Positions 38,410 through 61,631 of a stretch of 64,000 bases of DNA are shown piece by piece; within the stretch, counting starts at the first letter, position 1, and the number at the start of each line of letters is the position of its first letter. This DNA comes from Bacillota bacterium (GTDB taxonomy: Bacteria > Bacillota > Sulfobacillia > Fermentithermobacillales > Fermentithermobacillaceae). The notes under the pieces were generated by a model. It worked only from the letters and a program-made list of their open reading frames with translations. It did not search any database and had not been told where the DNA came from. Location: contig JAXGPX010000001.1 of assembly GCA_040766745.1 (NCBI GenBank), positions 187,950-251,949 on the forward strand, written 5' to 3'. The translations under genes and the position numbers were made by a program.

Positions 38410-39498
38410 ATGAAAAGAGCGCTACCTGTTTTGCTTGTACTTATGTTAGTTCTGGTTTCCATAGCAGGCTGTACACCCAAAGAGCCCCCGGCACCTGTAG
38501 AACCCGCTGCGCCTACTATTGCCAAGATAGGCCTTGGACATGTCACTAGCATTGCTAAATCAAAAGATCTTACAGTCGGGGAAGATGGGACTGTTACGCC
38601 TCCGGCGGCTCAGGTAGATACAGTGTTTGCAGGGGTTGCTTTCGACAAAGACGGTAAAGTCCTAAAGGTGTCCATCGATACTGCTCAGACAAAGGTCAAC
38701 TACGACAAGGATCTTAAGGTTACCTCTGATCTGTCTGCCCCTGGCAAGACCAAGGTCGAACTTGGAGCGGACTACGGTATGAAGAAGGTTTCAACAATCG
38801 GCAAGGAATGGTACGAGCAGATTGCCGAACTCGAGAAATGGATGATTGGGAAGACTGTAGACGAAATTAAGGGTATGAAAGTCAAGGAGCGCGACGCTTC
38901 ACATCCGTCAGTACCTGATGTACCGGAACTTACTTCTCTTGTTACCATTACTGTTCAGGATTATCTTGCTGCCGTTGAGGAAGCCCACAAGAACGCAGTT
39001 GAGGTTCCTGAAGGAGCTGTAAAACTAGGCCTTGGAAGCGAAATATCCATTGCCAAGTCCAGAGGTTATTCTCAGGCTGATGGAAAAGAGACCCTTCCCC
39101 AGGCCCAGGTAGATACAACTATCGCTGTCAGCGCTTTTGACAAAGACGGCAAGGTTGTACGTAACATTATCGACGTTGTGCAGACCAGAGTTGCCTACGA
39201 TAAAGAGGGCAAAGTAACCTCAGACAAGACTGCCGAGATTAAGAGCAAGGTAGAACTTGGCGAAGAATACGGCATGAAGAAGGTATCCACCATAGGCAAG
39301 GAATGGTTCGAGCAAATTGCCGAACTGGAGAAATGGATGGCAGGCAAGACCGTAGCCGAGATCAAGGCTATGAAGGTCAAAGAGCGTGACGCTTCTCACC
39401 CGTCAGTACCTGATGTGCCAGAGCTTACTTCCACTGTAACCATTACTGTACAGGACTACATTGCTGCTGTCGCCAAGTCTTTTGACAACGCCAAGTAG
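38410..39498 (+). CDS. Lipoprotein of unknown function built from two tandem copies of a ~165-aa module
   Basis: Signal peptide plus lipobox (SIAGC). The two halves align end to end. Their C-terminal 55 aa (YGMKKVSTIGKEW[Y/F]EQIAELEKWM.GKTV.EIK.MKVKERDASHPSVPDVPELTS) are nearly identical in protein but differ at many synonymous DNA positions. Confidence 0.7.
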   Translation: MKRALPVLLVLMLVLVSIAGCTPKEPPAPVEPAAPTIAKIGLGHVTSIAKSKDLTVGEDGTVTPPAAQVDTVFAGVAFDKDGKVLKVSIDTAQTKVNYDKDLKVTSDLSAPGKTKVELGADYGMKKVSTIGKEWYEQIAELEKWMIGKTVDEIKGMKVKERDASHPSVPDVPELTSLVTITVQDYLAAVEEAHKNAVEVPEGAVKLGLGSEISIAKSRGYSQADGKETLPQAQVDTTIAVSAFDKDGKVVRNIIDVVQTRVAYDKEGKVTSDKTAEIKSKVELGEEYGMKKVSTIGKEWFEQIAELEKWMAGKTVAEIKAMKVKERDASHPSVPDVPELTSTVTITVQDYIAAVAKSFDNAK

Positions 39499-39637
39499 TA
39501 CCTGGCTCAGAAAATAGATTTTCAGGTACTCCCCCGTCATCAGATGGGGGAGTACTATGTAGTCCCTGAAGTCCTAATTATGTACTCACGGGAGAAAGGG
39601 TATTGTAACTATGATGTTTATTCGCTTAACATAAAGA

Positions 39638-40774
39638 GTGGTGATAAAAGTGATAAAGACAGATTCGAAATCTTTCCTGAGGCTGATAAGCTTATTTGTG
39701 GCCGTCGCCATATCTGCTTCTATTAGCGGATGTCAATTGCTAAATACCCGAACCAGATACACTACTCCGGTACATTACACAGATAGTTTTTTCAATACGT
39801 TTGACACTATAGTCACTTTGGTTGCGTATACCGAGAACGAAGACGAATTTGACACGTATTATAAAAGGGTTTACACACGTATGCATGAGTTTCACCGGTT
39901 ATATGACATATACAACGACTACGAAGGTGTAAATAACATTAAGACAATAAACGACAATGCAGGTGTGAAACCGGTTAAAGTAAATCAAGAGATAATAGAC
40001 CTGATTCTCTTTTCAAAAGATTGGTACCGTCGCACCGGTGGAAAGGTGAACATTGCCATGGGTGCGGTGTTACGCATATGGCACGAGTACCGGCAGGAAG
40101 GACTTGATGATCCCGCCAGTGCCAAGTTACCTCCTATGGAAACCCTTCAAGAAGCTGCTAAACACACTGATATTGACAAGGTTGTTGTAGACACTGTAAA
40201 CAATACAGTGTACCTGGATGACAAAGAGATGAGGCTGGATGTCGGTGCTGTGGCCAAAGGTTACGCAACTGAAATGGTGGCCCAGGAGATAATGGCCATG
40301 GGGCTCAAATCAGGTATGCTAAGTTCAGGCGGCAACATACGGGCAATAGGGAAACCTCTCGACGGTTTGCGCGCACGCTGGGGCGTAGGTGTACAAGATC
40401 CCAGGCAGTCAATAGTATCTGAACAGGGCCTTCTTGACGTTCTCTATTTCAACGATGGGTCAGCAGCAAGCAGCGGGGATTACCAGAGGTATTACACTGT
40501 AGAAGGTAAGCGGTACCACCACATCATTGACCCTGAGACTCTTATGCCGGCAGAATACTACCGTGCAGTGACCGTGGTGACGGAGGACTCTGGGGTTGCC
40601 GATTTCATGTCAACAACCTTGTTTCTGCTGCCCTATACTGAAGGCAAGTCACTGGTGGATGATCTTGACGGGGTAGAAGCGTTATGGGTGATGGTTGACG
40701 GGAAAATAGAGGCCTCAGACGGTATGAAACTCATTATGAAAAGCCAAGGAGCTACAGGGAAAGAGCCTAAATAA
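39638..40774 (+). CDS. apbE: FAD:protein FMN transferase (ApbE family), made as a lipoprotein
   Basis: Lipobox ISGC. ApbE motifs (RLDVGAVAKGYATE, GMLSSGGNIRAIG). Confidence 0.8.
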   Translation: MVIKVIKTDSKSFLRLISLFVAVAISASISGCQLLNTRTRYTTPVHYTDSFFNTFDTIVTLVAYTENEDEFDTYYKRVYTRMHEFHRLYDIYNDYEGVNNIKTINDNAGVKPVKVNQEIIDLILFSKDWYRRTGGKVNIAMGAVLRIWHEYRQEGLDDPASAKLPPMETLQEAAKHTDIDKVVVDTVNNTVYLDDKEMRLDVGAVAKGYATEMVAQEIMAMGLKSGMLSSGGNIRAIGKPLDGLRARWGVGVQDPRQSIVSEQGLLDVLYFNDGSAASSGDYQRYYTVEGKRYHHIIDPETLMPAEYYRAVTVVTEDSGVADFMSTTLFLLPYTEGKSLVDDLDGVEALWVMVDGKIEASDGMKLIMKSQGATGKEPK

Positions 40775-40813: not shown

Positions 40814-41866
40814 CTAGAGAGTTAATTCCCATATGCCTAATTCCGAGGTTCTTCCTGATGCGCCTACTTGCAGGCTGAACCCCTCTGAGATCAGAATGTC
40901 TATGGCGCTTTCTTGATGTTTTCCAAGGTGCATGAAAATCTCAATGCTGTAGTCCTGGTATCCTTCTTTGCGAAGTTCTTGGCCCCGGCGATATGCTTCT
41001 TGCTTGAAGAATCGTGCGATTGCCGCTACGCCTCTATCTTCACCGTATATGGCTCCTGTATGGAATGTTACCTTAACTGCTTTATCAGACTCTTTAGGTT
41101 CATCAACCCAGGGGTTGGCTGCAAAAGCTGCTGCCAACATTGTTTCAGGCAGCATGGCATTATCAGTCTTCTTGCTTTGCTGCTGTCTGACGGCTACGTA
41201 CACTGTTTCGTCTTCATGCGTCGTATTCAGACTTTCCACAGTCAGCGGACGCCATATGAAATCCGAGCCGACAAAGCGTACGTGTTTTGCACCCAACTGA
41301 TAAATATGGCCTGCGTCATGGGGATAGGCCTTGCGGACCAAAATACTTTGCGCCTGCATTTCGGCGTTTCCGTTGCTGCATTCTTGGGTTTTGCAGTGAC
41401 AAGCTGCAACGCCTGCTCTTTCAGAAGAATCGGACGGATGAAATCTTAAGTGCAGCTCTACTAGGGAATCTTTCAACTTGAATCCGACTGATTTTGCAAG
41501 TGATTGAGAGGCAAGGTTATCAGCATCAATTGCCGCGTAAGCGATTTTCGCTTGTCTGTTCCTGGCACCAACAATGGAAGTCTCTGTGAGTAGCTTGCCA
41601 ATGCCGAGTTTCCTGTATTCATGATGCACTCTGATTCCCTCAAACCACACATGGCTACCGGAGAGATAACGTACATGGGTTACGCCTACCGGCCTGCCGC
41701 CTAGATCGGCTACCCATACGTCGCCGTCTGCCTCAATCCAGCCGGCAACTTCCTCGGATACGTAATCACCCCATTCAAATGTGTTACGTGTAAATTCTTG
41801 TATGTACGGTATATCGGCGGCTGCCGCTTTCCTAATCACTACTTGATTCACGTGTAAAGCCTCCAT
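40814..41866 (-). CDS. GNAT-family N-acetyltransferase domain protein with a ~200-aa C-terminal extension of unknown function
   Basis: N-terminal GNAT core (IRVHHEYRKLGIGKLLTETSIVGA). The remainder is uncharacterised. Confidence 0.55.
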   Translation of the reverse strand: MEALHVNQVVIRKAAAADIPYIQEFTRNTFEWGDYVSEEVAGWIEADGDVWVADLGGRPVGVTHVRYLSGSHVWFEGIRVHHEYRKLGIGKLLTETSIVGARNRQAKIAYAAIDADNLASQSLAKSVGFKLKDSLVELHLRFHPSDSSERAGVAACHCKTQECSNGNAEMQAQSILVRKAYPHDAGHIYQLGAKHVRFVGSDFIWRPLTVESLNTTHEDETVYVAVRQQQSKKTDNAMLPETMLAAAFAANPWVDEPKESDKAVKVTFHTGAIYGEDRGVAAIARFFKQEAYRRGQELRKEGYQDYSIEIFMHLGKHQESAIDILISEGFSLQVGASGRTSELGIWELTL

Positions 41867-42087
41867 CAGTCCTGGTTACCAGGCGCACCTGGTTTGGCGT
41901 GGGTGCTAGAGCTTGCTCTATATTCCCGCCTCAGCACAGTGTTTGTGTCACCAGTGAATATACCCCATATATACCACCAAATCGATAGACAAGGCCATAA
42001 TCCCAGACAACAGACTTCAAACATCAAATATTCTGAACTAATGAAAACGGTAAAGAAGGATTTTCGAACAGACCGTCGAATAATATG

Positions 42088-42141
42088 AACTACCTGAAGG
42101 TAGACAACTGCCTGAAGAGTATGAATTGCCTGAAAGGTAGG
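42088..42141 (+). promoter_or_regulatory. Three phased 18-bp direct repeats (aaCTaCCTGAAGgtAg / aaCTgCCTGAAGagTA / aaTTgCCTGAAAggTAg) directly upstream of the RBS of the first gene of the membrane-protein operon
   Basis: Read directly at 42088-42141. The repeats are in phase with a possible 19-codon ORF (42085-42144, MNYLKVDNCLKSMNCLKGR) that lacks a convincing SD. Confidence 0.5.
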
Positions 42142-42149
42142 TGAACATT

Positions 42150-42923
42150 ATGACCATCGCAAAAGGACAGGTGTTTTCGACCATCACTTTGATCATCTAT
42201 TGTGCAGCTATCTTGATGATGATCTCCAGGGCTCGAAAAGGCATTAAGATCCCTGAACTGTATCAGGTTCCGGGACTGGATGCCCTCGATGAAGCCATCG
42301 GGCGTTGCACAGAGATGGGGCGGCCAGTTCACTTCTCACCGGGAATTGGGGGTGTTGATAACGCCCAGACCCTGGCGGCGCTGTCGATTCTTGGCTATGT
42401 AGCTCGCCAGTGCGCCAAGTACGACACTGACCTTATTGCTACTAACAGGATCACTGTGGTTTACCCTATAGCGGAAGAAATCGTAAAACAGGCTTTCATC
42501 GAGGAAGGGAAAGCTGGGAATTTCCAGCCGGAAAACGTCCGTTTCATTTCGGAAGACCAGTTTGCTTACGCAACGGGTGTAACCGGTATCATGCATCGCG
42601 AGAAGCCTGCAGCTAACCTGCTTCTTGGTGCTTTCTGGGCGGAGTCTCTTATCTTCGCTGAGGTAGGCGCTACTGCTGGAGCGATTCAGATTGCAGGTAC
42701 TGCCAACACGCACCAGATCCCCTTCTTTGTAGCAGCATGTGACTATGCTCTAATAGGCGAAGAGTTGTATGCTGCAAGTGCGTACCTCACGAAAGAGCCT
42801 ATCCTCATGGGCAGCCTTGTTGTTCAGGACTGGGGTAAGATGTTTGCAGCCGCCGCTATTATTATTGGCACTCTTCTGCAAACGGCAGGCGTGACCGCTC
42901 TAAAAGACATTATGGCCAAGTAG
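42150..42923 (+). CDS. Uncharacterised membrane-anchored protein (N-terminal TM, C-terminal hydrophobic region); first gene of a four-gene operon
   Basis: ORF 42141..42923. ATG 42150 preferred because AAAGGTAGGTG lies 6 nt upstream. No recognised domain. Confidence 0.55.
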   Translation: MTIAKGQVFSTITLIIYCAAILMMISRARKGIKIPELYQVPGLDALDEAIGRCTEMGRPVHFSPGIGGVDNAQTLAALSILGYVARQCAKYDTDLIATNRITVVYPIAEEIVKQAFIEEGKAGNFQPENVRFISEDQFAYATGVTGIMHREKPAANLLLGAFWAESLIFAEVGATAGAIQIAGTANTHQIPFFVAACDYALIGEELYAASAYLTKEPILMGSLVVQDWGKMFAAAAIIIGTLLQTAGVTALKDIMAK

Positions 42924-42995
42924 GTATGGTATCAACCACTATTGTTTTGAGATTAGTTCACATTGAAAGTGTTCCTATGAGAGGGGGGACAACTG

Positions 42996-43631
42996 TTGAA
43001 AAAGGAATTTCCAGTATTGATTGGGCTTCTCTTTGGCTTGTTCGTCATAATCGCCGTGTTTGTATCCGGTGTTCCAGGCCTTACTGAATGGAAAGACACA
43101 GTGGACGACTGGTTCTTGATGGCTTCGGCATGGGCAGTTGCAGTAGGCGTAGTTAACCTGACCCAGATTCATGGCAGGCGGGTTCAAATGAAGCGCGAGG
43201 GCTATGCATATAGTATATGGCTCATGGTTTGCATGTTTGGCATGGCATTCTTTGGTATCTTCATAGCCAAGAATGCAAATCACGCAGGCTGGAAGTTTAT
43301 GTACAACCAGTTAATCGCGCCAATGAACGCAACGGTTTACTCAACCCTGGTGTTCTATATCGGTGCAGCCGCTTACAGAGCCTTTAGGGTAAGAAACCTG
43401 GAAGCCAGCGTTCTTCTGGTCGCAGCTGTTCTCATGATGCTCGGCCGGGTGCCTCTGGGTAAGGTTCTTCTTGGCGATTGGGTCGGCGAGGCAGCCGACT
43501 GGATTCTCAACGTACCCAACTCTGCAGGTATGAGAGGAATTCAGATCGGCGCTACCCTGGGCGGTATTGCTACTGCTTTGAGGATTCTTGTTGGAATTGA
43601 GCGTGGCCACCTTGGTGGTACCGGTGAATGA
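42996..43631 (+). CDS. Uncharacterised polytopic membrane protein (211 aa)
   Basis: ORF with five to six hydrophobic helices, tightly linked in the operon. Confidence 0.5.
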   Translation: MKKEFPVLIGLLFGLFVIIAVFVSGVPGLTEWKDTVDDWFLMASAWAVAVGVVNLTQIHGRRVQMKREGYAYSIWLMVCMFGMAFFGIFIAKNANHAGWKFMYNQLIAPMNATVYSTLVFYIGAAAYRAFRVRNLEASVLLVAAVLMMLGRVPLGKVLLGDWVGEAADWILNVPNSAGMRGIQIGATLGGIATALRILVGIERGHLGGTGE

Positions 43632-43664
43632 TATCCGACTTCATGATAAGGGAGGTGAATCATA

Positions 43665-44483
43665 GTGTGGCAAAAACTGGCTAACATTGACAGGCGGGTT
43701 ATCTACGCTCTAATGATACTTGTAATTGCACTGTCGCTCATAAAGCCCGTAGGGCTTGCTATTGTACCGTCTCCAGAGACCAAGAGAGTATACGAATTTG
43801 TCGACTCTTTGCCTTCAGGCAGCATTGTGTATCTTGGTTTCGACCACTCTGCAGGGGGAATTCCTGAACTTATGCCTGCGGCCCAGTCGTTGGTTAGGCA
43901 GGGGTTCAGGAAAGATCTTCGCTTTGTATGCGCAGGTATGTGGGTTATGGCCGGAGATATGGCTGACACAGCCTTTTCCATTGCTAAAAATGAGTTTCCT
44001 GAGAAGGAATACGGTGTCGACTGGGTCAATGTAGGGTACAAACCCGGAGGCGAGGTATTGCTTCAGAAGATGCTTTCAAGCATTTACGATGCGGCTGTAG
44101 GGGTTGACCATTACGGCAATGACCTGAAAACTTTGCCCCTTATGGCCGAAGTTCCGACCATTAAGGATGCAGATGCGATATTCATATTTGTTACCGGTAC
44201 TCCCGGTGAGAAGGAATATATCAGGCACGTAACCTCACCTCATAACATCCCCTTCATAGTGTCTACTGTATCAGTAAGTGTGCCTGAACTGATGCCGTTG
44301 ATCCAGTCACGCCAGGTTTTGGCAGGAGTGCTCGGAATGAAGGGTGCAGCCGAGTATGAGGTTTTGGTTGGAAATCCCGGCAGCGCAACAGCGGGTATGG
44401 ACGCACAGTCGTTTTCCCACGCATTGATTATCTTGTTTATTATTCTTGGAAACCTGGGTTATATCTTGACCCGTGAGAAATAA
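43665..44483 (+). CDS. Uncharacterised protein with N- and C-terminal TM helices flanking a ~200-aa soluble domain
   Basis: ORF with an RBS (GGGAGGTG) upstream. No recognised domain. Confidence 0.5.
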   Translation: MWQKLANIDRRVIYALMILVIALSLIKPVGLAIVPSPETKRVYEFVDSLPSGSIVYLGFDHSAGGIPELMPAAQSLVRQGFRKDLRFVCAGMWVMAGDMADTAFSIAKNEFPEKEYGVDWVNVGYKPGGEVLLQKMLSSIYDAAVGVDHYGNDLKTLPLMAEVPTIKDADAIFIFVTGTPGEKEYIRHVTSPHNIPFIVSTVSVSVPELMPLIQSRQVLAGVLGMKGAAEYEVLVGNPGSATAGMDAQSFSHALIILFIILGNLGYILTREK

Positions 44484-44523
44484 CGCAAGCTTGGCCGTAA
44501 CGGCTGACAGGAGGTGAAAAACA

Positions 44524-45144
44524 GTGGATCTATTCGGTACCTGGCTTCAGGCTGTATTTACGATACTGCTGCTTTCAGTAGTATTTAAAGATAACCCAGC
44601 TTACCGTTTTGCCGAGAACACTTATGTTGGCCTGTATGCCGGCTACACCGTGGCGGTACAGTGGTTCAACTATATAAGGCCGAGCTTTCAGTTGAAGATT
44701 ATGCAAGAAGGCAAATGGTGGTATATTGTTCCCATCATTGTCGGCCTTATGATTTACACAAGGTATATAAAGCCCATTGCATGGGTCAGCCGGTATCACA
44801 TCTGCTTCCTATTGGGAATCGGATCCGGTTATATCTTGTCGACGACATTTAAGCCTATGTTTATCGACCAGATTAGGGCTACCTTCCTGCCCCTTTGGGT
44901 TGCAGGTGATTGGTGGAAGAGCGTTTCCAACATCATCTATGTTGTCGGCACCTTTTCGGCTCTAGTGTACTTCTTGTTTACCCTTGAGAAGAAGGGTGTC
45001 CAAGGTAAGATATCCGGCATGGGACGTTGGGTTATGATGGTAGCTTTCGGAGCAGCATTCGGCAACACTGTGATGGCCCGTGTATCATTGTTCCTTGGCA
45101 GAATGCAGTTTTTGCTGGGTGACTGGTTGAACATGATTAAGTAG
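44524..45144 (+). CDS. Uncharacterised polytopic membrane protein (206 aa)
   Basis: ORF with GGAGGTG upstream and multiple hydrophobic helices. Last gene of the operon. Confidence 0.5.
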   Translation: MDLFGTWLQAVFTILLLSVVFKDNPAYRFAENTYVGLYAGYTVAVQWFNYIRPSFQLKIMQEGKWWYIVPIIVGLMIYTRYIKPIAWVSRYHICFLLGIGSGYILSTTFKPMFIDQIRATFLPLWVAGDWWKSVSNIIYVVGTFSALVYFLFTLEKKGVQGKISGMGRWVMMVAFGAAFGNTVMARVSLFLGRMQFLLGDWLNMIK

Positions 45145-45292
45145 CCTAACGGCATTCTTCGGATCTGCATTAATTGGAAAACATGCGAATGAGGCAGCGG
45201 AGCAATCCGCTGCCTCATTTTGCGGTAATATTCAACGTCCAAACAATGCGGGTAAGACCCCATGGCAGATGCCGGGAAAGAGCCAAAAATCA

Positions 45293-46501
45293 TTACCTGA
45301 GAATCTCCTCTAGGATTTCATCCAAAGCATCTGCTAACACACGATAATCGTCTATTGTATTGTAGGCTTGTGCAGATATCCTGACTAATCTATTTTGGCA
45401 ACCTGCAAATGTGACGATTGGTACTTCGATCTTGTACCGGTGATAAAGAATATCATGTATAGGGTCAAAACTTTTGAGGTCAGGGTTTGCTGGAGACAAA
45501 TCAGGTGGCAGGAGTGGAATGCACGCCATTGAGCCAATCATTTCTTGAGGAGCAGGTTCAGCCACACTGAATTTCTCGCATAGCATTCGTCTTGCTCGCA
45601 GAACCAGTTCGTGGTTTCGCCGCGACAGTTCAGCCCAGCCTCCGGGAAACAGCGAATCCATAAAGTCAATGCAATCGGCAATCATGATATACGGTGTATA
45701 ATCTCCGGTTCCGGTCCAATCAAACTCAAGATGAAGAAAACTTTTATCTTTCCTCGCCGAGTTTGCGCCATGGCTTGTTACCAGGGGACGGACCAGGTTT
45801 CTGCGGTCGTTTCTAATATAAAGAAAGGCCGAGCCTTTGGGAGCGCAAATCCACTTGTGGCAGTTGCCTGTATAATATGCAGCCTGTAATGTTTCCATGT
45901 TCAAAGGAACCATTCCCGGGGCATGTGCTCCATCGATTAGTACATCTACTCCGCGTTTGGACAGGATAGAAACTAACTCTTCTACTGGGAAGATAAGGGC
46001 AGTAGGGCTCGTAATGTGGTCAAGGATCACAAGCTTTGTAAGGTTAGTCACCTGCTCAAGAACCAGTTCTGTTACTACAGATTTGGATTCTATGGGAAAG
46101 GGTACCTTTACTATTCTTACTGTTATTCGGTCTCTGTCTACCAGTGTGTCTACGGCGTTCCTACATGCGTTGTAGATGTGGTCTGTAATTACCAATTCGT
46201 CTTTTGCACAGAAGGACAAGGATTTCAAGACCGTGTTTACTCCGGTGGTAGCGTTTGGGACAAACACCAGCCCTTTGGAGTCTGCACCTATGAACGAGGC
46301 TAACCGCCCCCTTGCTTTTTCAAGCATATCTTCGATTTCCCGTGCAAAAAAGCGTACAGGCTGGCTTTCAATGTGAAGATGAAGTTTGTACTGTTCCTTT
46401 AGAATTTCAATGGGGACTGCGCCAAATGAACCGTGGTTAAGAAACGTAAACGATGGGTCCAGGGCCCATAGTTTACGCAGGCTGTCTACTTCGGGTATCA
46501 T
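45293..46501 (-). CDS. Class V aminotransferase-fold PLP-dependent enzyme (cysteine-desulfurase / isopenicillin-N-epimerase-like)
   Basis: LNHGSFGAVP N-terminus. PLP-lysine region (YYTGNCHKWICAPKGSAFLY). Confidence 0.75.
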   Translation of the reverse strand: MIPEVDSLRKLWALDPSFTFLNHGSFGAVPIEILKEQYKLHLHIESQPVRFFAREIEDMLEKARGRLASFIGADSKGLVFVPNATTGVNTVLKSLSFCAKDELVITDHIYNACRNAVDTLVDRDRITVRIVKVPFPIESKSVVTELVLEQVTNLTKLVILDHITSPTALIFPVEELVSILSKRGVDVLIDGAHAPGMVPLNMETLQAAYYTGNCHKWICAPKGSAFLYIRNDRRNLVRPLVTSHGANSARKDKSFLHLEFDWTGTGDYTPYIMIADCIDFMDSLFPGGWAELSRRNHELVLRARRMLCEKFSVAEPAPQEMIGSMACIPLLPPDLSPANPDLKSFDPIHDILYHRYKIEVPIVTFAGCQNRLVRISAQAYNTIDDYRVLADALDEILEEILR

Positions 46502-46703: not shown

Positions 46704-48005
46704 GTGGACGACCCTGGAGGTAGTAGTTACCTTATAGCGTTGCTTTGCCTGTTGCTATCTGCGTTTTTTTCCGGGTCAGAAAGTGCCATATTTTCTTCAG
46801 ATGAGGCTAAACTGAAGAGCGCCTACTCAGGCAGCAAGAAAGTTCAGAGAGTTCTTGGCTTGAAGAAGAACCCTGATTGTTTTCTCTCGAGCATCCTCTT
46901 TGGTAATACCCTTGTCAATATCACATTCTCCTCAGTTGTTGCCATGATTGTTTATTCATGGTTTCCACAGTCAAAAGGGGTAGCTGAGTTGATCACCACT
47001 GCTGTTGGAACCCTTCTTATCCTGCTATTTGGCGAAATCACACCGAAGTTCATGATGGGGTCTAATCCTGAGAGCAGCGCGCTGAAGGTGGTAACCGGGC
47101 TCTCATGGTTCCAGGCAATCATGAGCCCCTTTTCCAGGGTGCTTGTGGTAGTGGCCGCTTTCTTTTCAAGGTTCCTTCCTGACAATAGCGAGCATATAGA
47201 GGACTTGTCTGAAGCCAGGGTTATGGCAGCCCTTGATTATGGTGAGGATACCGGAGCTATAGGGAACGCTGAAAAGGAGATAATTACCGGGGTCATAGAC
47301 TCCCAGGATCTTGACGCGTCAGAGATTATGGTTCCCCGGCCAAGGATGGTGGCAATACAGGAAGACAAGAGCGGGCTCGATGTTCTTAAACTAATGTTAA
47401 AACACGGGTTTTCCCGTATTCCAGTCTATTCAGATTCGAAGGACAACATAACCGGAATCGTAAACATAAAAGACCTTGCAGTGTTTATCGGCGGTGGATC
47501 GATTGAGAGGGATGGGCTGAGCGCCCTAACAGATGTCCCTGCAAGACATTTTGCATCTGCCCCTTATTTCATACCCGAAAGCAAGAACGTTTCTGATTTG
47601 CTGTACGAGATGAAGGCCAGAGGAGTGCACATGGCCATTGTCATTGATGAGTTTGACGGAGTGTCAGGGCTAGTGACTCTTGAAGACGTTATTGAGGAAA
47701 TCGTAGGGGACATACAGGATGAATACGACCTTGAAAACCGCGAATCCGTGAATCTTGGCAATGGACGATGGCGGGTACCGGGAAGTATTAGCCTTGCTGA
47801 TTTTGAGGACTTGACCGGCATGGAAATAGACAGCGAAGATTGCGATTCTGTTGCAGGCCTTGTGATGACTTTTCTCGATAGAGTACCGTTTGCCGGCGAC
47901 GCCTTTTGTCTTATTGAACCGAAGGTGTGCTTTACTGTGCAAGAGGTTAAAGGGCCTAGGATTAGAAAGGTATTAGTAGAAAGAATCGAGGGAGAAACCA
48001 AGTAA
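46704..48005 (+). CDS. CNNM/CorC/HlyC-family transporter (DUF21 TM domain + CBS pair + CorC_HlyC C-terminal domain)
   Basis: N-terminal DUF21 (LLSAFFSGSESAIFS), CBS region, C-terminal transporter-associated domain. GTG start. Confidence 0.75.
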   Translation: MDDPGGSSYLIALLCLLLSAFFSGSESAIFSSDEAKLKSAYSGSKKVQRVLGLKKNPDCFLSSILFGNTLVNITFSSVVAMIVYSWFPQSKGVAELITTAVGTLLILLFGEITPKFMMGSNPESSALKVVTGLSWFQAIMSPFSRVLVVVAAFFSRFLPDNSEHIEDLSEARVMAALDYGEDTGAIGNAEKEIITGVIDSQDLDASEIMVPRPRMVAIQEDKSGLDVLKLMLKHGFSRIPVYSDSKDNITGIVNIKDLAVFIGGGSIERDGLSALTDVPARHFASAPYFIPESKNVSDLLYEMKARGVHMAIVIDEFDGVSGLVTLEDVIEEIVGDIQDEYDLENRESVNLGNGRWRVPGSISLADFEDLTGMEIDSEDCDSVAGLVMTFLDRVPFAGDAFCLIEPKVCFTVQEVKGPRIRKVLVERIEGETK

Positions 48006-48006
48006 T

Positions 48007-49092
48007 ATGGATACCGAGGTATCAGTAGTATCGATTTTGATACGAGTAGTTCTGTTTCTCTTGTCGCTTTTGTCAGTAGGTTTCTTTGCCGGAGCTGAGA
48101 CAGCGTTCTTGGCAATGGACAAGTGGGTTATCGACAACCTTTCAAGCGAAGGAGACCAACGAGCTGCGCTCCTCAAGAGTATGAAACAGAACTCTAAAAA
48201 CACCCTGGCTGCTGTACTGGTAGGAACAAATGTATTTACCATTTTGGCTTCAGTGACTGCATTGTCAGTAGCCTATTCTCTTGGATTTAAGGGGCCGCTT
48301 AACGTAGCCGTAGTATCACTTATTACTACTGCGTTCGTTTTCGTGTTTTCAGAACTTATTCCTAAGACCTACGCTGCAAAGGCTCCCACCCGGGTAGCTC
48401 TTTCAGTAGCAGTGTTGCTGAATTTTGCTGTCAGAGTTTTGGGGCCGGCCTCATATCTGATAGGGGCTATTCCGTCTTTGCTAACATCGTTTTTCTCGCG
48501 TAGGAGAAAAGAGGCATCACAGAAACCTGAAACCGAGGTTCTGGCTGTGTTTGAAATGGCTGAAGAAGACGGGTACGTTAAGCCTGAAGACAGGGATGTT
48601 ATTGACAGTGTATTTAGTTCAAAGGACAAGAAGGTCCTGGATATACTAGTGCCCCTAAAGAATGTAGTTACTTACAGCCCTTCCACTACGCTTTCAGAAG
48701 GAATTGACTTGTTCAGAGAATACAGGTACAGCCGGGTTCCGGTCCTTTCTGATTCAGGCCGCAAAGTCACCGGTATTGTATATATAAAGGATGCTATACG
48801 GGAAGTTGTATCAAATCCCAAGAAGGGTTCTCTTCCTGTTACGGCTGTGATGCGTTCACCGTACTTGGTGCAGGCTGGAGAGAACATACTGAGAGTGTTT
48901 TCCAGGCTCAAGCGGGACCGAGTCCACCTGGCAGTAGCGGTACAAGGTAATTCTCCGGTAGGCATCATAACTATGGATGATCTGCTAGAGGAGCTTGTAG
49001 GAGAGATACCTGAGGAAGCCTATGCTGACAATACTACTTTAGTGGCCGGCAAGGCCTATTCTTCGTCAAGGATAACGGTTTCCAGTGACTAA
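48007..49092 (+). CDS. CNNM/CorC/HlyC-family transporter paralogue (DUF21 + CBS pair)
   Basis: Same architecture (FFAGAETAFLAM...). Directly follows the first copy, 1 nt after its stop. Confidence 0.7.
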   Translation: MDTEVSVVSILIRVVLFLLSLLSVGFFAGAETAFLAMDKWVIDNLSSEGDQRAALLKSMKQNSKNTLAAVLVGTNVFTILASVTALSVAYSLGFKGPLNVAVVSLITTAFVFVFSELIPKTYAAKAPTRVALSVAVLLNFAVRVLGPASYLIGAIPSLLTSFFSRRRKEASQKPETEVLAVFEMAEEDGYVKPEDRDVIDSVFSSKDKKVLDILVPLKNVVTYSPSTTLSEGIDLFREYRYSRVPVLSDSGRKVTGIVYIKDAIREVVSNPKKGSLPVTAVMRSPYLVQAGENILRVFSRLKRDRVHLAVAVQGNSPVGIITMDDLLEELVGEIPEEAYADNTTLVAGKAYSSSRITVSSD

Positions 49093-49287: not shown

Positions 49288-51126
49288 GTGAGCAGACTTA
49301 CGGTCTATACGCCAGATGATGCCGAAATCGTAATGGAACGTATGGTCCAGGAGATGGAGCGGCGATTGGCTGCCGCCCCGCCAGGTATATGCCCGGTGGA
49401 CATGGCTTCTGTTTTTTTGAGGCTTTGCCATGCTCAGACCTGCGGCAAGTGTGTGCCGTGCAGGATAGGGCTTAATCGGTTGGGGGACCTTCTGGACACA
49501 ATACTCGATGGCAATGGCGATGAAGAAACAATCAAACTGTTAGAAGAAGTATCTCAATCAGTAATGGATACCGCTGACTGCGTTATCGGCTCTGATGCTG
49601 CGGCTATGGTTTTGAGGTCCGCCAGAGAGTTTAAGCAAGATTATGTTTCACATATAGAAGAGGGGCATTGTCTTGGAACGTTTTCAGCGCCGGTTCCATG
49701 CCGCTCGGCATGTCCGGCAGGTGTGGATGTTCCAGGCTATATAGCTCTAATTAGGTCAGGCAGGCCGCAGGATGCTGTTAGGCTCATAAGGCGGGACAAT
49801 CCTTTTCCGTCGGCCTGCGCCCTTGTATGCGAGCATCCGTGTGAGACCCACTGCAGGCGTTCTATGCTTGATGACGCCATAAATATCAGGGGGCTTAAGC
49901 GGTATGCTGTAGAAGCTGCAGGAGATGTACCTGTTCCTGAGCCAATGCCATTTACCGGCAAGAAGGTGGCCATTATCGGCGGAGGGCCATCAGGCCTAAC
50001 GGCTGCATATTATTTGGCTCTAATGGGCCATGATGTAACAGTATTCGAAAAGCAGCCCAAACTCGGAGGCATGCTCAGATATGGTATTCCCGAATACAGG
50101 CTTCCCAAGAGCATATTGGACAGGGAGATCGAGACAATACTGAGCCTGGGAGTTACTGTTCATACCAATTTTGAAGTGGGCCGTGACGGGACGTTGGAAA
50201 GCCTGAAGAAGACCTACGACGCTGTATATGTTGCCATAGGTGCTCATGGAGATCGCAAAATGAGGGTCTCAGGCGAGGAAGCAAAAGGTGTAATTCCAGC
50301 TGTAAAGATGCTTCGTGACATTGCTTTGGACAACCCTGTGGACCTAAAAGGGAAAAAGGTAGTAGTTATAGGCGGTGGCAACGTCGCAATGGACGCAGCC
50401 CGTAGTTCTGTACGGCTTGGTGCGTTGGAAGTCAGTGTAGCCTACAGGCGTAGAATGCAGGACATGACTGCCCAGCGTGAGGAAATTGAAGGAGCCCTTG
50501 CTGAGGGTGTTGATATTCTTGAACTTATGGCCCCAGGGAAAGTCGAACAGGATGAGAATGGACAAGTCGCTGCAATATGGTTGCAGGAGATGACTGTAGG
50601 TGCAATAGACGCATCTGGAAGGCCTAAGCCTGTCCCATCCGGCGCTCCTGATCAGAGGCTTGCCTGTGATGTAGTCATTGTTGCTATAGGGCAGGACATA
50701 GAATCAGGGTTCCTGGCCAAGGATGGCATTCCTTGTTCAAGAAATGCAGTAGTTGCTGAGGACGACCTTTCGATTAAGGGAAGTTCCGGGATTTTTGCAG
50801 GTGGAGACTGTGTTACCGGCCCTGCTACGGCAATCAAAGCAATAGGTGCAGGTAAGGTAGCTGCCTTCAATATTGATCTGCATCTTGGAGGGCAGGCGCG
50901 TACTCCCGAAGAGGAGATTAATGTGCCTGCAGCAATTCCAGGAGACTTGTCTCCTACAGGCAGGGTCAATATGAGAGAGAGGCCCGGTTCTGAGAGAATT
51001 CATGACTGGAAACAGTTTGAGCTTAACATGGATTTCAAAGAGGCCCTGCACGAAGCCAGGCGCTGCCTCAGGTGTGACCACTACGGATCCGGTTCCATAG
51101 AAGGAGGTAGGCTTGCAAGATGGTAA
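49288..51126 (+). CDS. Electron-transfer subunit of the [FeFe]-hydrogenase: N-terminal NuoF-C-terminal-like 4Fe-4S region fused to a GltD-like (glutamate-synthase small-subunit type) FAD/NAD(P)-binding oxidoreductase
   Basis: Cys motifs CGKCVPCRIG, CRSACPAGVDVPGYIALIRSG (typical GltD N-terminus), dinucleotide motifs VAIIGGGPSGLTAAYYLA and VVVIGGGNVAMDAAR. Confidence 0.75.
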   Translation: MSRLTVYTPDDAEIVMERMVQEMERRLAAAPPGICPVDMASVFLRLCHAQTCGKCVPCRIGLNRLGDLLDTILDGNGDEETIKLLEEVSQSVMDTADCVIGSDAAAMVLRSAREFKQDYVSHIEEGHCLGTFSAPVPCRSACPAGVDVPGYIALIRSGRPQDAVRLIRRDNPFPSACALVCEHPCETHCRRSMLDDAINIRGLKRYAVEAAGDVPVPEPMPFTGKKVAIIGGGPSGLTAAYYLALMGHDVTVFEKQPKLGGMLRYGIPEYRLPKSILDREIETILSLGVTVHTNFEVGRDGTLESLKKTYDAVYVAIGAHGDRKMRVSGEEAKGVIPAVKMLRDIALDNPVDLKGKKVVVIGGGNVAMDAARSSVRLGALEVSVAYRRRMQDMTAQREEIEGALAEGVDILELMAPGKVEQDENGQVAAIWLQEMTVGAIDASGRPKPVPSGAPDQRLACDVVIVAIGQDIESGFLAKDGIPCSRNAVVAEDDLSIKGSSGIFAGGDCVTGPATAIKAIGAGKVAAFNIDLHLGGQARTPEEEINVPAAIPGDLSPTGRVNMRERPGSERIHDWKQFELNMDFKEALHEARRCLRCDHYGSGSIEGGRLARW

Positions 51127-52910
51127 AATTCTCTATTGACGGAAGGCCTTTTGAGGTTCCGGAAGGAACCACCATCCTTGCTGCTGCAAGGCAATCGCGG
51201 CTGAGAATACCTACCCTTTGTTACCTTGAAGGGATTAATGAAATAGGGGCTTGCAGAGTATGTGTTGTGGAACTGAAGGGTTCACACAAACTGGTAACTG
51301 CTTGCAACACTGTTGTGCAAGAGGGCATGGAAGTGCTTACTGTCAGCACCAGGGCTCGCCATGCCCGTAGAATGGCGGTTGAACTCTTGCTCACACAGCA
51401 TGATTGCAACTGTCCGACTTGCCCCAGAAACGGGAACTGCAAGCTTCAGAACCTGGCTCATGACTTGGGTGTACGTGATGTAAGACTTAATAAGGAATTG
51501 CCTTCTCAGAGAAAAGATGAAAGCACTCCTTCAATAGTCAGGGATCCCAAGAAATGCATTATGTGCTATAGGTGCGTAAGCTTCTGTGACAAGGTCCAGT
51601 CACTCGGAGTATGGAGAATATCAGGTACCGGTGCAAGGACTGCTATAGAGCCTGCGTATGGGCAGCGCCTCGGTGAATCGGATTGTGCTTTCTGTGGCCA
51701 GTGTGTCACCCATTGCCCAGTAGGGGCTTTGAGCGAAAAGGACCAGACAGATCGTGCGTGGGAACTGGTTTCAGACCCTGACAAGATTACAGTTGTTCAA
51801 GTAGCCCCTGCAGTTCGTGCTGCATGGGGAGAGGGTTTAGGAATGTCCCCTGAGGTAGCAACTCCAGGGCGCATGGTTGCAACCCTAAAGCACCTTGGTT
51901 TCAAGTATGTGTTTGATACTTGTTTTACGGCGGATCTTACGATAATGGAGGAAGGCACTGAACTCCTTGAGAGGCTTGGAGTAAAAGAGAGCCACCATAA
52001 GCCCGGCCCTCTGCCTCTTTTTACGTCATGCTGTCCGGGATGGGTCAGGTTTGCAAAGACCCAGTATCCTGAACTGGTGCCTAACATATCAAGCACTAAG
52101 TCTCCTCAGCAAATGTTTGGCGCAGTAGCCAAGACATACTATGCTCAGTTGCTGGGAGTGCCGGCTGACAAGATCGCAGTGATCTCAATAATGCCTTGCA
52201 CTGCAAAGAAATATGAAGCAGGGCTTTCTGTTATGAACCAGGCAGCCGCTGGGCAAGACGTTGACCTGGTTCTTACGACTCGTGAGCTGTGTGCCATGAT
52301 CAAGGAAGAGGGAGTACAGGCCGAAAGATTGGCAGAAGAAGAATGGGATACTCCTTTGGGCGTTTCAACCGGAGCAGCAGTAATCTTTGGAGCTACCGGG
52401 GGAGTAATGGAGGCAGCCCTAAGATCTGCATATTACCTGGTTACCGGTAAGAACCCTGAACCAACTGCATTCTCCGAAGTAAGAGGCCTTGACGGTTGGA
52501 AAGAGGCTAAATTCGTGCTTCCCGGGAAGACTCTGAGAGTAGCAGTTGCTCACGGTTTAGGGAATGCCCGCAAGCTAATTGAGGCCATAAAGCAAGGCCA
52601 GGCAGAATACGATTTTGTCGAAATCATGGCGTGCCCGGGCGGCTGCGCAGGTGGTGGCGGACAGCCGATCTGTGTCGACGATGAAGAACTGGCTGGAGAG
52701 CGGGCACAGATATTGTATGGGCTTGATGATCATGCAGATTTGAGGTTTTCTCATGAGAACCCAGCAGTTCAGGATATATACAAGGAATTCCTGGGCGAAC
52801 CTGGTTCTGAGATTGCCCATAAACTGCTTCACACCAAGCAGGGTAGTTGGGAAATAGCTACGGCTAAGCCGCGTAGGAAAAGGGTTTTCAACGCTGCTGA
52901 TTCCGATTAG
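51120..52910 (+). CDS. hydA: [FeFe]-hydrogenase catalytic subunit HydA with an N-terminal 2Fe-2S and ferredoxin-like FeS domains
   Basis: H-cluster signatures TSCCPGW, MPCTAKKYE, EIMACPGGCAGGGGQP. N-terminal 2Fe-2S (CYLEG...CRVC...C) and two CxxCxxCxxxCP motifs. Confidence 0.9.
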   Translation: MVKFSIDGRPFEVPEGTTILAAARQSRLRIPTLCYLEGINEIGACRVCVVELKGSHKLVTACNTVVQEGMEVLTVSTRARHARRMAVELLLTQHDCNCPTCPRNGNCKLQNLAHDLGVRDVRLNKELPSQRKDESTPSIVRDPKKCIMCYRCVSFCDKVQSLGVWRISGTGARTAIEPAYGQRLGESDCAFCGQCVTHCPVGALSEKDQTDRAWELVSDPDKITVVQVAPAVRAAWGEGLGMSPEVATPGRMVATLKHLGFKYVFDTCFTADLTIMEEGTELLERLGVKESHHKPGPLPLFTSCCPGWVRFAKTQYPELVPNISSTKSPQQMFGAVAKTYYAQLLGVPADKIAVISIMPCTAKKYEAGLSVMNQAAAGQDVDLVLTTRELCAMIKEEGVQAERLAEEEWDTPLGVSTGAAVIFGATGGVMEAALRSAYYLVTGKNPEPTAFSEVRGLDGWKEAKFVLPGKTLRVAVAHGLGNARKLIEAIKQGQAEYDFVEIMACPGGCAGGGGQPICVDDEELAGERAQILYGLDDHADLRFSHENPAVQDIYKEFLGEPGSEIAHKLLHTKQGSWEIATAKPRRKRVFNAADSD

Positions 52911-53184: not shown

Positions 53185-54207
53185 ATGAAAGTGGGAATAG
53201 CAGGCAGCCCTCAGTCTGGGAAAACTACCCTGTTCAGGCTGCTTACCGACGCAGGCTTGGCGGCCAGCCAAAGCAGCATAGGTGTTATGGAAGTACCTGA
53301 CCAACGAGTGAATATACTCTCCGGGATATATCAGCCTCGGAAAACCACTTATGCAAGAATAGATCTTGTGGACATTCAGGCACACAAAGGGCAAGAACTA
53401 CTCAATGCTGTGCGCAACCTTGATGTTCTCATTGTTGTCCTGGGATCTTTCATGGGCGACCTAGGAGTTAGGGATTCCATCGAGTTCGTAAGCGCAATGG
53501 AAACTGATTTCTACGTGGCTGACCTGGTCTCAGTTGAGAACAGGCTAGAGAAACTGAAGGCCAACAAGGCCAAGCCCATCAGCCAGATGGAATTGCCGTT
53601 TCTCGAAAAGTGCAAAGATGCACTGGATAAGGAGTTGCCCTTAAGGGATGTAGAATATCAGCCCTACGAGGCAGATCTGCTATCCAATTTCGCGTTTTAT
53701 ACAAACAAACCTGTAATTTTGGCACCCAACGTATCAGATGAACAGCTGTCGACAGGCAGTTATGCTGCAATGGAGCAGGTTCGCCGGCTGTCTGAAAGTA
53801 AAGGTTACAAAGTAGTTGTGTATTCGGGTATGGTCGAAGAAGAGATAGGTTCTTTGAGTGAAGAAGACAGGGTGCCGTTTTTGGAGGAGTATGGGCTTAC
53901 TGAGTCAGGGGTTGCAAGAATCGCCCGGGCGGCCTACAGCACGCTTGGCCTAATATCGTTCTTTACAGTTGGTTCAGATGAAGTCAGGGCCTGGACAATC
54001 CGCCAGGGCACTGCAGCTAAAGAGGCTGCCGGCAAGATCCATACAGACCTGGAGCGCGGGTTTATTAGAGCAGAGGTTGTGTCTTTCCAAGATTTCTCGG
54101 CCCTTGGTTCTATGAAAGTTTGCAGAGATAAAGGCCTTGTTAGGCTTGAAGGAAAAGATTATGTAGTAAGAGACGGTGACATAATGAACGTTAGATTCAA
54201 TGTTTGA
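53185..54207 (+). CDS. Divergent YchF/Ola1-family P-loop ATPase paralogue with a TGS-like C-terminus
   Basis: Clear YchF-like C-terminus (AWTIRQGTAAKEAAGKIHTDLERGFIRAEVV...KDYVVRDGDIMNVRFNV). Degenerate G motifs (G1 GSPQSGKT, no Gly in the G3 DxxG position). Confidence 0.65.
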   Translation: MKVGIAGSPQSGKTTLFRLLTDAGLAASQSSIGVMEVPDQRVNILSGIYQPRKTTYARIDLVDIQAHKGQELLNAVRNLDVLIVVLGSFMGDLGVRDSIEFVSAMETDFYVADLVSVENRLEKLKANKAKPISQMELPFLEKCKDALDKELPLRDVEYQPYEADLLSNFAFYTNKPVILAPNVSDEQLSTGSYAAMEQVRRLSESKGYKVVVYSGMVEEEIGSLSEEDRVPFLEEYGLTESGVARIARAAYSTLGLISFFTVGSDEVRAWTIRQGTAAKEAAGKIHTDLERGFIRAEVVSFQDFSALGSMKVCRDKGLVRLEGKDYVVRDGDIMNVRFNV

Positions 54208-59693: not shown

Positions 59694-59713
59694 TCTATGT
59701 TCCCTCCATCTGG

Positions 59714-60937: not shown

Positions 60938-61631
60938 GGCTATCGCTCCTCTCGTAGACCTCGCCGTCTCTTAGCTGTATCACAACGTCTGCATACTCCA
61001 AGAATGCCGGGTCATGGGTGGCAATAATGAAAGTTTGCTTTTCTTCCTTGTTGAACTTAGAGAAAAGCTCCATGATCTCTCTTGAGCGAGTTGAATCAAG
61101 GTTGCCGGTTGGTTCGTCTGCCAGGACCACTGCCGGCCTTGTTGAGAGAGCTCTGCATATGGCGACTCGCTGTTGCTCGCCTCCGCTGAGTTCTGACGGG
61201 TAATGTTTTTGCCTTTCGAGAAGGCCCACTGAACCAAGCAGATATGAAGTTCTTTCTGAGATTTCGTTGTCTTTGTAACCGGCAAGCCTCATAGGTAAGC
61301 CGATGTTTTCCACTGCCGTCAGTTCAGGAAGCAGGTTGAAGAACTGAAATACCATACCGATTTCTGTCCTTCTCAATATGGCAAGATCATCTTCTGAAAG
61401 TCGCGAAAACTTTCTACCCTTCAAGATGACCTCGCCGTGGCTTGGCCTGTCTATGCCTCCCAAAATGTTTAGAAGAGTGCTTTTGCCTGAGCCTGAAGGG
61501 CCCATGATAACCACAAACCAGCCTTCCTGAACATCTACCTCCACGTCTCTCAATGCAAACAACCCGTCGCCAACGGGGTAAAATTTCGATATTTCATGGC
61601 AACTTATGATAGGGCCGGTCCATCTATTCAC
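60921..61631 (-). CDS. ABC transporter ATP-binding protein (MacB/LolD-like)
   Basis: Walker A GPSGSGKST, signature LSGGEQQRVAICRAL, Walker B VVLADEPTGNLD. Start set at the internal GTG (61631) with GGAGGTG 8 nt upstream. Confidence 0.8.
   Translation of the reverse strand: MNRWTGPIISCHEISKFYPVGDGLFALRDVEVDVQEGWFVVIMGPSGSGKSTLLNILGGIDRPSHGEVILKGRKFSRLSEDDLAILRRTEIGMVFQFFNLLPELTAVENIGLPMRLAGYKDNEISERTSYLLGSVGLLERQKHYPSELSGGEQQRVAICRALSTRPAVVLADEPTGNLDSTRSREIMELFSKFNKEEKQTFIIATHDPAFLEYADVVIQLRDGEVYERSDSHGTLI

Follow-up and report, generated by a model that had tools for sequence, protein, structure and literature searches.

Within the 64,000-nucleotide stretch of DNA analyzed here (the window; positions 187,950 to 251,949 of contig JAXGPX010000001.1, GenBank assembly GCA_040766745.1, from a Bacillota bacterium of the Fermentithermobacillaceae), four adjacent genes, designated A, B, C, and D, form an operon whose products are best explained as a conserved heteromeric complex of the cytoplasmic membrane, belonging to a family whose members occur in anaerobic Bacteria and Archaea. 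In an initial set of 88 loci, tblastn places B, C, and D beside A in the same order wherever the contig suffices, and all four genes are present in 30 of 33 loci of at least 9 kb from a separate metagenome sample, the other three being cut at a contig end. By sequence search, the complex (ABCD) lies outside every characterized kind tested, with a reliable structural model for A alone and with remote homology possible for B, C, and D. The initial annotation of this DNA had described a possibly novel complex of uncharacterized membrane proteins, and a conserved, uncharacterized complex is supported, with the genes co-conserved in fixed order and no subunit assigned to a characterized family by sequence.

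The ABCD operon

Each gene carries a Shine-Dalgarno sequence (AGGTGA, GAGAGGGGGG, GGGAGGTGA, and CAGGAGGTGA) and a single terminator follows the set, features that support the unity of the operon; the positions of the four linked genes and their ribosome-binding sites are as originally described. Homologs of A are 257 amino acids long and begin with MTIAKG, which places the start of A at ATG 42150 and not at the upstream GTG 42141. That GTG does, as originally described, overlap the TGA of a small upstream open reading frame (ORF). The hairpin downstream of D, judged from its sequence, is probably a bidirectional terminator that closes the operon, and because a convergent aminotransferase gene lies on its other side it probably terminates both that gene and D.

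The products had been classed as two polytopic proteins and two proteins with terminal membrane anchors, and this agrees with their hydropathy: A and C each have one hydrophobic helix at the N-terminus and one at the C-terminus, with a soluble domain of ∼200 amino acids between them, and B and D each have about six transmembrane helices.

Distribution of the module

Relatives of A are abundant. A protein search returned more than 7500 related clusters at 90% identity; clustering at 50% gave 2426 representatives at E ≤ 0.001 and 1085 at 1e-30; and when one genome per species was scanned, at least 579 species representatives proved to have relatives. Bacterial carriers include Bacillota (Fermentithermobacillaceae and Symbiobacterium among them), Chloroflexota (the latter via the protein search), WOR-3, Stahlbacteria, Eisenbacteria, Ignavibacteria, Cloacimonadota, Zixiibacteriota, Calditrichaeota, Aegiribacteria, and Vulcanimicrobiota, with many FCB-type candidate phyla represented, and archaeal carriers include Bathyarchaeia, Methanomethylicia, and Culexarchaeia.

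Tandem duplicates of ABCD are frequent, with two or three complete sets at many loci, and a few loci have the circular variant B-C-D-A. The genes flanking ABCD differ by lineage, so the unit of conservation is the four-gene module itself. One metagenome contig (L089; JGI 3300053716, Ga0534105_00024) does not differ from the window in the region compared, and the nearest named relatives of the window are metagenome-assembled genomes of uncultured Eubacteriales and Fermentithermobacillaceae.

Subunit A

None of the four proteins had been thought to match a known family. This is true of B, C, and D but not of A, which matches Pfam PF20539 (DUF6754) at E = 9e-96 (320.3 bits, against a cut-off of 27) over residues 7-253 of 257; 80 of 80 long A homologs also match this entry. 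DUF6754 is a Pfam entry of unknown function that is silent on partners. A literature search found no paper mentioning DUF6754 or PF13941, the Pfam family of a partner ATPase described below, and "GlmL" returned irrelevant matches only. Neither sequence search nor the fold in an AlphaFold2 model placed A in a characterized family.

The model of A has a predicted local distance difference test (pLDDT) score of 87, with membrane helices at residues 8-30 and 217-245, the latter long, and a soluble domain that forms a six-stranded, Rossmann-like alpha/beta fold, with strands within residues 60-202 and helices within 44-214. As modeled, the domain between the two membrane helices is Rossmann-like in a generic way. 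Among 58 A sequences, 35 positions are invariant, and conserved motifs include EAIGRxTEMGRPV, GAFWAES, GTAxTxQIPFFVAACDY, and GEE. Mean identity of distant loci to the window is 51% for A, compared with 37% for B, 35% for C, and 37% for D, and by this measure of sequence A is by far the most conserved subunit.

The 257-amino acid A of the window is a minimal form, also seen in the Bacillota, Chloroflexota, and archaeal sequences examined. Most A representatives from other lineages, which are apparently diderm, are 300-1270 amino acids long and carry DUF6754 at their C-terminal end (P0271-P0420). Their N-terminal extensions start with a signal peptide and include PQQ_2/BamB-like beta-propellers (19 of 80) and fn3 domains (4 of 80), exported modules that sit N-terminal to the first helix of A. 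Extended forms occur at L038, L045, L048-L051, L055, L059, L067, L072, L075, L084-L086, and L088 (L-numbers denote loci throughout).

Subunits B, C, and D and membrane topology

Topology was assigned from hydropathy and the Lys plus Arg bias of the loops (positive-inside) over 86-94 homologs per family. The termini of A are poor in positive charge and the flanks of its domain are rich in it, which suggests a cytoplasmic domain and an outside N-terminus; the exported signal peptide, propeller, and fn3 extensions provide independent support. Subunit C consists of a transmembrane helix, a predicted extracytoplasmic domain of ∼215 amino acids, and a second transmembrane helix with a conserved His and Asn. 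A conserved IDRR before its first helix and a basic tail after its second suggest that its N-terminus is inside and its domain outside. The alpha/beta class of this domain is only a guess from weak matches.

In B, the even-numbered loops are positive, suggesting an inside N-terminus, and a conserved SAAYRAFRxR motif is assigned to the cytoplasmic side from 94 sequences. In D, which has a conserved KDNPFYKFAE loop, the odd-numbered loops are positive, suggesting an outside N-terminus, and therefore B and D would be antiparallel. Taken together, the charge patterns predict a cytoplasmic A domain, an outward-facing C domain, and a membrane core of two antiparallel six-helix subunits.

Searches for relatives of B, C, and D were negative throughout. 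The window proteins had no Pfam or NCBIfam match, 75 homologs of B, C, and D from many phyla had no Pfam match at E ≤ 0.001, and profile searches of all four families against the sequences of the PDB gave nothing significant (best E = 0.075). A search with B and D as one concatenated query returned only 30 distant matches. The AlphaFold2 model of B, built from 17 sequences, is all-helical and of low confidence (pLDDT 68), and it had no meaningful structural match.

Candidate relationships among the subunits were also discarded. Alignment of A with C by hhalign kept the same register, a hint of distant paralogy, but was not significant (P = 0.02), and alignment of B with D gave nothing, so neither pair can be called detectable paralogs. 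An apparent natural fusion of B and C (P0262; L090, 10001-11602, 533 amino acids) was discounted as probably an assembly or frameshift artifact because its contig also has split housekeeping genes, with pheT in pieces.

A recurrent ATPase and its partner c2

Neighbors of ABCD were surveyed by clustering, tblastn, and Pfam counts over 132 co-directional neighbors, and partner counts refer to about 88 loci, 79 of them from the genome scan, plus the 33 long metagenome loci. The most recurrent neighbor, present in 17 of the ∼88 loci, is a GlmL-like ASKHA ATPase of ∼610 amino acids; beside it lies a second protein, c2 (∼375 amino acids), found in 21. Both occur in seven of the 33 metagenome loci, and overall about 20% of loci carry the pair, one pair per ABCD set. 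The genes are adjacent and co-directional, in the order ABCD-GlmL-c2 or GlmL-c2-ABCD, in Symbiobacterium, other Bacillota, and Eisenbacteria-like, Aegiribacteria, and Vulcanimicrobiota genomes. Three loci (L146, L148, and L163) have two ABCD sets with two GlmL-c2 pairs, and this matched copy number argues for partnership. The unit had been said to look self-contained, which is only partly right, as in about one-fifth of loci the pair joins it one-to-one.

Matches of the ATPase to PF13941 range from E = 1e-99 to 1e-129, but its scores of 153-222 bits are below the TIGR01319 and NF040745 cut-offs of 204-600, and on this sequence evidence it is a subfamily related to, and distinct from, GlmL. The c2 protein has RnfC_N/NqrA_N-like barrel-sandwich domains and a KOW-like C-terminus. 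Neither c2 nor the ATPase has a relative in the PDB.

The window contains a GlmL-like/c2 pair 12 kb downstream of ABCD, a candidate partner of ABCD in this genome. Here, however, the pair comes at the end of an FtsX-ABC-FtsX operon of overlapping genes, a position which suggests that it can associate with two kinds of membrane system.

Proposed function and alternatives

ABCD is tentatively proposed to be a membrane complex of a new kind, serving translocation or coupling, a reading that is plausible without being probable. B and D, with antiparallel 6 + 6 helices, would form the membrane core, and the predicted cytoplasmic domain of A, on binding a nucleotide or some universal ligand, would drive or gate what happens at the outer face. 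In many genomes, the GlmL-like ASKHA ATPase and the barrel-sandwich protein c2 would join the A domain in a cytoplasmic module, and the outer face would consist of the C domain, supplemented in the other lineages by the beta-propeller and FN3 extensions of A. The proposal draws on the predicted placement of the soluble domains on opposite faces of the membrane, the predicted antiparallel core, the conservation gradient, the paralog expansion, the exported protein- or polymer-binding modules of A, and the ASKHA ATPase in one-fifth of loci. A stronger version, which must be called unlikely, holds that ABCD, the GlmL-like ATPase, and c2 together make up an unrecognized class of translocase or mechanotransducer, shared by Bacteria and Archaea and unrelated to ABC, ECF, TRAP, Sec, or Rnf systems, in which the ASKHA ATPase, with its actin/Hsp70 fold, docks on the membrane-tethered Rossmann-like subunit A and powers or gates the complex. 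Several points weigh against a translocation or coupling machine: ABCD has no homolog of known function, and its supposed mechanism is read from architecture and neighborhood; the low-confidence model of B identifies no fold; and the GlmL-like ATPase is possibly no core partner, because about 80% of loci have no such gene within 5-10 kb and the window's own pair belongs to another operon, which encodes an FtsX-type ABC system.

The main alternative, possible though rather unlikely, is a small-solute importer with a tethered receptor, that is, an ordinary transporter in which B and D are the permease, C is a tethered substrate-binding subunit, A is regulatory or accessory, and the GlmL-like ATPase and c2 are metabolic neighbors acting on the import. 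The tandem paralog sets and the conservation gradient, in which the cytoplasmic part is far more conserved than the membrane part and the external part is least conserved, resemble those of binding-protein-dependent importers, and the operon is often a solitary unit, surrounded in the window and at many other loci by metabolic genes unrelated to it. SBP_bac_5, MlrC peptidase, QueT, and EamA are occasional neighbors, and a gene resembling TonB-dependent receptors by eye lies downstream in FCB-type loci. The relatives of GlmL, which from the Pfam description of PF13941 we take to be a hydantoinase/oxoprolinase branch of small-molecule ATPases, would also suit an importer. Against it, no similarity to a transporter family was found in Pfam, NCBIfam, or the PDB, large beta-propeller and FN3 modules on A would be unusual for a solute importer, Rfam scans of 13 diverse loci found no riboswitch or known cis-regulator, and the one-to-one duplication of GlmL-c2 with ABCD suggests physical partnership over a shared pathway. 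A membrane enzyme or ion-translocating module resembling the Rnf/Nqr core or a Na+-pumping biotin decarboxylase, with A binding NAD(P)(H) or carboxybiotin, is architecturally tempting and has to be judged improbable. The predicted layout of ABCD parallels that of NqrC, NqrD, NqrE, and NqrF as generally known, a biotin carrier and an OadA/PycB-like carboxyltransferase lie upstream in Methanomethylicia, and ApbE lies upstream in the window's clade. Yet every family feature tested failed, as the 75 homologs of B, C, and D had no match to Rnf-Nqr, FMN_bind, OAD_beta, or any other Pfam family, no Cys is among the conserved positions of B or D, and no cofactor-binding motif was recognized. The OadA link is confined to one lineage and the ApbE link to close relatives, and tandem paralog expansion would be unusual for a respiratory module.

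The module matters because it is abundant, in the numbers given above, and because it is found in two domains of life, with a concentration among poorly studied anaerobes. The conservation of A is comparable to that of core housekeeping proteins, yet none of the four proteins can be tied to a known function, and three of the four families are outside Pfam. Identifying what ABCD moves or senses would close a gap that recurs when the metabolism and envelopes of these organisms are reconstructed, and the ASKHA-ATPase link, if true, could represent a new way to couple cytoplasmic energy to the membrane exterior.

The upstream repeats and the 19-codon ORF

Three 18-bp direct repeats precede the operon, as originally reported, with exact copies of the core AAYTRCCTGAAR at 42088, 42106, and 42124, 18 bp apart, and with no other copy in the 64 kb. 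The chance expectation of such core repeats is 0.06, for a pattern defined after the fact. Repeat 3 reads CCTGAAA, and Tandem Repeats Finder calls no array because the units have diverged. All three phased units are kept only in L001, whose A is 98% identical to that of the window (units AACTACCTGAAG, AACTACCTGAAG, and AATTGTCTGAAA), and in L094, whose A is 91% identical (units CAGCCTGAAGGTA, TTACCTGAAGGTA, and TTGTTTGAAAGGTA). The array is absent in all relatives with A at or below 88% identity, some of which have scattered CTGAAG-like words (L010 in both its sets, L002 and L095-L097, L098, L099, and beyond).

Repeat 3 overlaps a CTGAAAGGYAGGTGA context beside the ribosome-binding site that is kept in the window, L001, L094, and L098, and L002/L095-L097 and L010b read CAGAAAGGYAGGTGA at this place. 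Since the relatives without an array keep CTGAAAGGYAGGTGA or a variant, repeat 3 would be the ancestral context and units 1 and 2 added copies, and from these sequences the array looks like a local, clade-specific triplication of the sequence just upstream of the ribosome-binding site. Conservation of the repeat region in orthologous loci had been set beforehand as a test of dedicated control through the repeats; no such conservation was found beyond the immediate clade, and dedicated control of that sort is not upheld. The repeats and leader go no deeper than this clade and are of minor importance.

A block farther upstream (AAGAAGGATTTT-N12-CGNCGAATAAT) is more widely shared and may be a promoter or leader element. 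It is invariant or nearly so in the window, L001, L002/L003, L010, and L094-L097, and recognizable in L099, L106, and L112; relatives without the array keep it as AAGAAGGATTTT...CGAATAAT, except that L010b has lost it and the short contig L098 does not extend that far. No sigma-70 consensus match was found upstream on the plus strand. Rfam gave chance-level matches only (E > 3) for 41500-42500, and in the 13 diverse loci it found tRNAs only. A second small ORF, MKTVKKDFRTDRRII, spans the block, and its terminal ATGA overlaps the start of the 19-codon ORF described below. Small ORFs across the block, including this one, were set aside, as no frame is consistent among relatives and the frame of MKTVKKDFRTDRRII is not conserved in L094.

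Two regulatory roles had been suggested for this region, a response-regulator-type binding site and a Cys-containing leader peptide, and neither is supported. In OmpR/PhoB-type sites, the direct repeats are spaced by roughly one helical turn or two (10-11 or 21-22 bp). A site of this type is unlikely here because the repeats are spaced by exactly 18 bp, neither flanking gene encodes a regulator (the neighbors encode a GNAT acetyltransferase and an aminotransferase), and no further sites precede other genes. More broadly, the repeats could be the operator of a clade-specific DNA-binding regulator, with one protomer on each repeat near the transcription start, as the three exact cores with strict 18-bp phasing, the retention of phasing and core in L001 and L094 despite substitutions elsewhere, and a palindrome within repeat 1 (CTACCT-GA-AGGTAG) would suggest, together with an upstream region whose conservation slightly exceeds that of synonymous sites. 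This is nevertheless very improbable, given that 18 bp is ∼1.7 helical turns, which as generally understood is out of phase for known direct-repeat regulators, that no copies precede other genes in the 64 kb, where near matches fall at scattered places within coding regions, and that the array is lost where A is at most 88% identical.

The ATG-initiated 19-codon ORF in phase with the repeats is present as described, and its TGA overlaps both GTG 42141 and the ribosome-binding site of A. That it encodes a translated regulatory leader peptide with NxLK repeats, modulating initiation at A, deserves very little credence on the mixed evidence, and the Cys once thought to mark it is not conserved. 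The NxLK pattern is kept in three close relatives, whereas Cys9 is Tyr in L001 and L094; L094 also has a TTG start and a 1-nucleotide indel, and the window has no Shine-Dalgarno sequence 5-12 nucleotides upstream of the ATG, the nearest one like it lying 24 nucleotides upstream. No equivalent ORF is found in L010b or L099, the ORF in L010 and L099 being absent or unrelated, and clades at or below 88% have unrelated small ORFs or none. Nor is there a terminator/antiterminator alternative, as the sole terminator-like site between the ORF and A is a 5-bp hairpin at 42090-42103 on the opposite strand, no more than in a shuffled control, and folding of the leader RNA is weak (minimum free energy −22.6 kcal/mol, z = −2.0). 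On the other side, the frame is open in all three clade members (the window, L001, and L094), its stop codon falls within the ribosome-binding region of A, an in-frame ATG in L001 lies 9 nucleotides past a conserved GAAGGA, and in the 86% clade this position is occupied by another small ORF, with mostly synonymous changes. Two observations tell against dismissing the region as a mere local triplication. Changes in the N, L, and K codons are synonymous only (AAC/AAT, CTG/TTG, and TGC/TGT), which also favors a translated leader, although with three sequences and few substitutions such a codon-like pattern could follow from the DNA repeat alone. The upstream 98 nucleotides are also 86% identical between the window and L001, compared with 71-83% at third codon positions, and mild constraint on the repeat region as a whole is possible.

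Neighboring genes and features of the window

Coordinates of the operon and of other features in the window are collected in Table 1.

Table 1. Positions of the ABCD operon, its upstream elements, and other annotated features of the 64,000-nucleotide window
Feature	Position	Strand	Remarks
Second small ORF MKTVKKDFRTDRRII	42041-42088		
Conserved upstream block AAGAAGGATTTT-N12-CGNCGAATAAT	42053-42084	+	
19-codon ORF MNYLKVDNCLKSMNCLKGR	42085-42144	+	ATG 42085 to TGA 42142-42144; in phase with repeats
Three phased 18-bp direct repeats	42085-42102, 42103-42120, 42121-42138	+	Core AAYTRCCTGAAR
Subunit A gene	42150-42923	+	ORF, 257 amino acids; Pfam DUF6754
Subunit B gene	42996-43631	+	ORF, 211 amino acids
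Subunit C gene	43665-44483	+	ORF, 272 amino acids
Subunit D gene	44524-45144	+	ORF, 206 amino acids
Hairpin, probable terminator	45188-45219	.	Perfect 14-bp GC-rich stem, then TTTT; downstream of D
Class-V aminotransferase	45293-46501	-	
Two CNNM/CBS genes	46704-49092		
[FeFe]-hydrogenase	51120-52910		
YchF GTPase	53185-54207		
GGDEF protein	54282-55436	-	
Barrel-sandwich/KOW-like c2	56461-57876	-	RnfC_N; tblastn 29% identity to ABCD-adjoining homolog
GlmL-like ASKHA ATPase	57873-59747	-	PF13941 E = 3e-99; tblastn 42% identity to ABCD-adjoining homolog
FtsX	59714-60937	-	Operon 56461-63084
ABC ATPase	60921-61688	-	Operon 56461-63084
FtsX	61624-63084	-	Operon 56461-63084

Upstream of the operon, the window encodes a 362-amino acid lipoprotein with two internal repeats and no Pfam match, followed by an ApbE flavin transferase (38410-40774). 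ApbE precedes ABCD only in the window's close relatives (L001, L002, L010, L094, L096, L099, and L120). Other lineage-specific neighbors include GGDEF and GT2 proteins and, in Fermentithermobacillaceae, class II ribonucleotide reductase, PHP, and DHDPS. At L012, L013, and L015, which are from Fermentithermobacillaceae-like genomes, ribonucleotide reductase genes directly upstream of A are split by LAGLIDADG inteins and carry a TSCPD domain, presumably a mark of the class II, B12-dependent enzyme.

FCB-type loci (L044, L055, L059, L067, L072, L086, L069, L074, and L080) have the order c8, GlmL-like gene, c2, ABCD (often duplicated), LplA-like ligase, and TonB-dependent-receptor-like gene, the last assigned by eye from a translation with a CarboxypepD_reg-like N-terminus and plug motifs. 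Two further neighbor clusters, c1 and c3, were rejected as antisense shadow ORFs of the TonB-dependent-receptor-like gene and of c2, respectively. In Methanomethylicia only (L091-L093 and L169), genes for a 161-amino acid biotin carrier and a 468-amino acid OadA/PycB-like carboxyltransferase lie directly upstream and co-directional; they are flanked by a KipI/KipA-like CT_C_D+CT_A_B gene and a DUF917 gene, and L093 has two ABCD sets.

Two further explanations were dropped. The GlmL-like, class II ribonucleotide reductase, and TonB-receptor neighbors prompted the idea of a corrinoid transporter under a B12 riboswitch, but Rfam scans of the leader and the 13 diverse loci gave no match, and PADLOC had no anti-phage defense matches for A-D, the GlmL-like protein, or c2.

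Comparison with known systems

The sole family membership that can be asserted for ABCD is that of A in DUF6754, by sequence. The Nqr/Rnf core consists of two antiparallel six-helix subunits of ∼200 amino acids, a bitopic subunit with an outer domain, and a tethered cytoplasmic Rossmann-type domain, and ABCD has the same predicted overall layout as this core (NqrC, NqrD, NqrE, and NqrF; RnfG, RnfA, and RnfE). It differs in having no detected sequence relationship, including no PDB sequence match for B or D, no Cys ligands at the invariant or nearly invariant positions of B and D, and no FMN_bind (in C or elsewhere), ferredoxin, or FAD domain found. A check for kinship with OadABG-type pumps found no OAD_beta match in ABCD, and OadA-like and BCCP genes adjoin it only at the four Methanomethylicia loci.

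Importers with tethered receptors, such as those of the ABC type in Gram-positive bacteria and archaea and of the TRAP and TTT types, resemble ABCD in their heteromeric permease, membrane-anchored extracytoplasmic domain (with the class of the C domain guessed), paralog expansion, and conservation gradient. They differ in that ABCD has no homology to ABC, DctPQM, or TctABC proteins and no Walker-type ATPase, and in that its candidate receptor, C, has two membrane anchors. No ABC, ECF, TRAP, or TTT domain was found by Pfam or NCBIfam in B, C, or D, and A matches DUF6754 only.

The neighboring ATPase strongly matches PF13941 and is thereby like GlmL/MutL of glutamate mutase (PF13941, TIGR01319), but it has an extra C-terminal part of ∼150 amino acids and no adjacent mutase gene. 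Mechanotransmission ABC systems (FtsEX, MacB, and LolCDE) differ from ABCD in their ATPase, as A-D contain no ABC ATPase or FtsX domain, and the candidate ATPase is instead an ASKHA protein whose coupling to the membrane proteins is conjecture. These systems nevertheless share with the proposed complex a cytoplasmic ATPase, a small helical core, and sizeable extracytoplasmic domains, and the GlmL-like/c2 pair, a neighbor of ABCD in other genomes, sits in this very window in an FtsX-ABC-FtsX operon.

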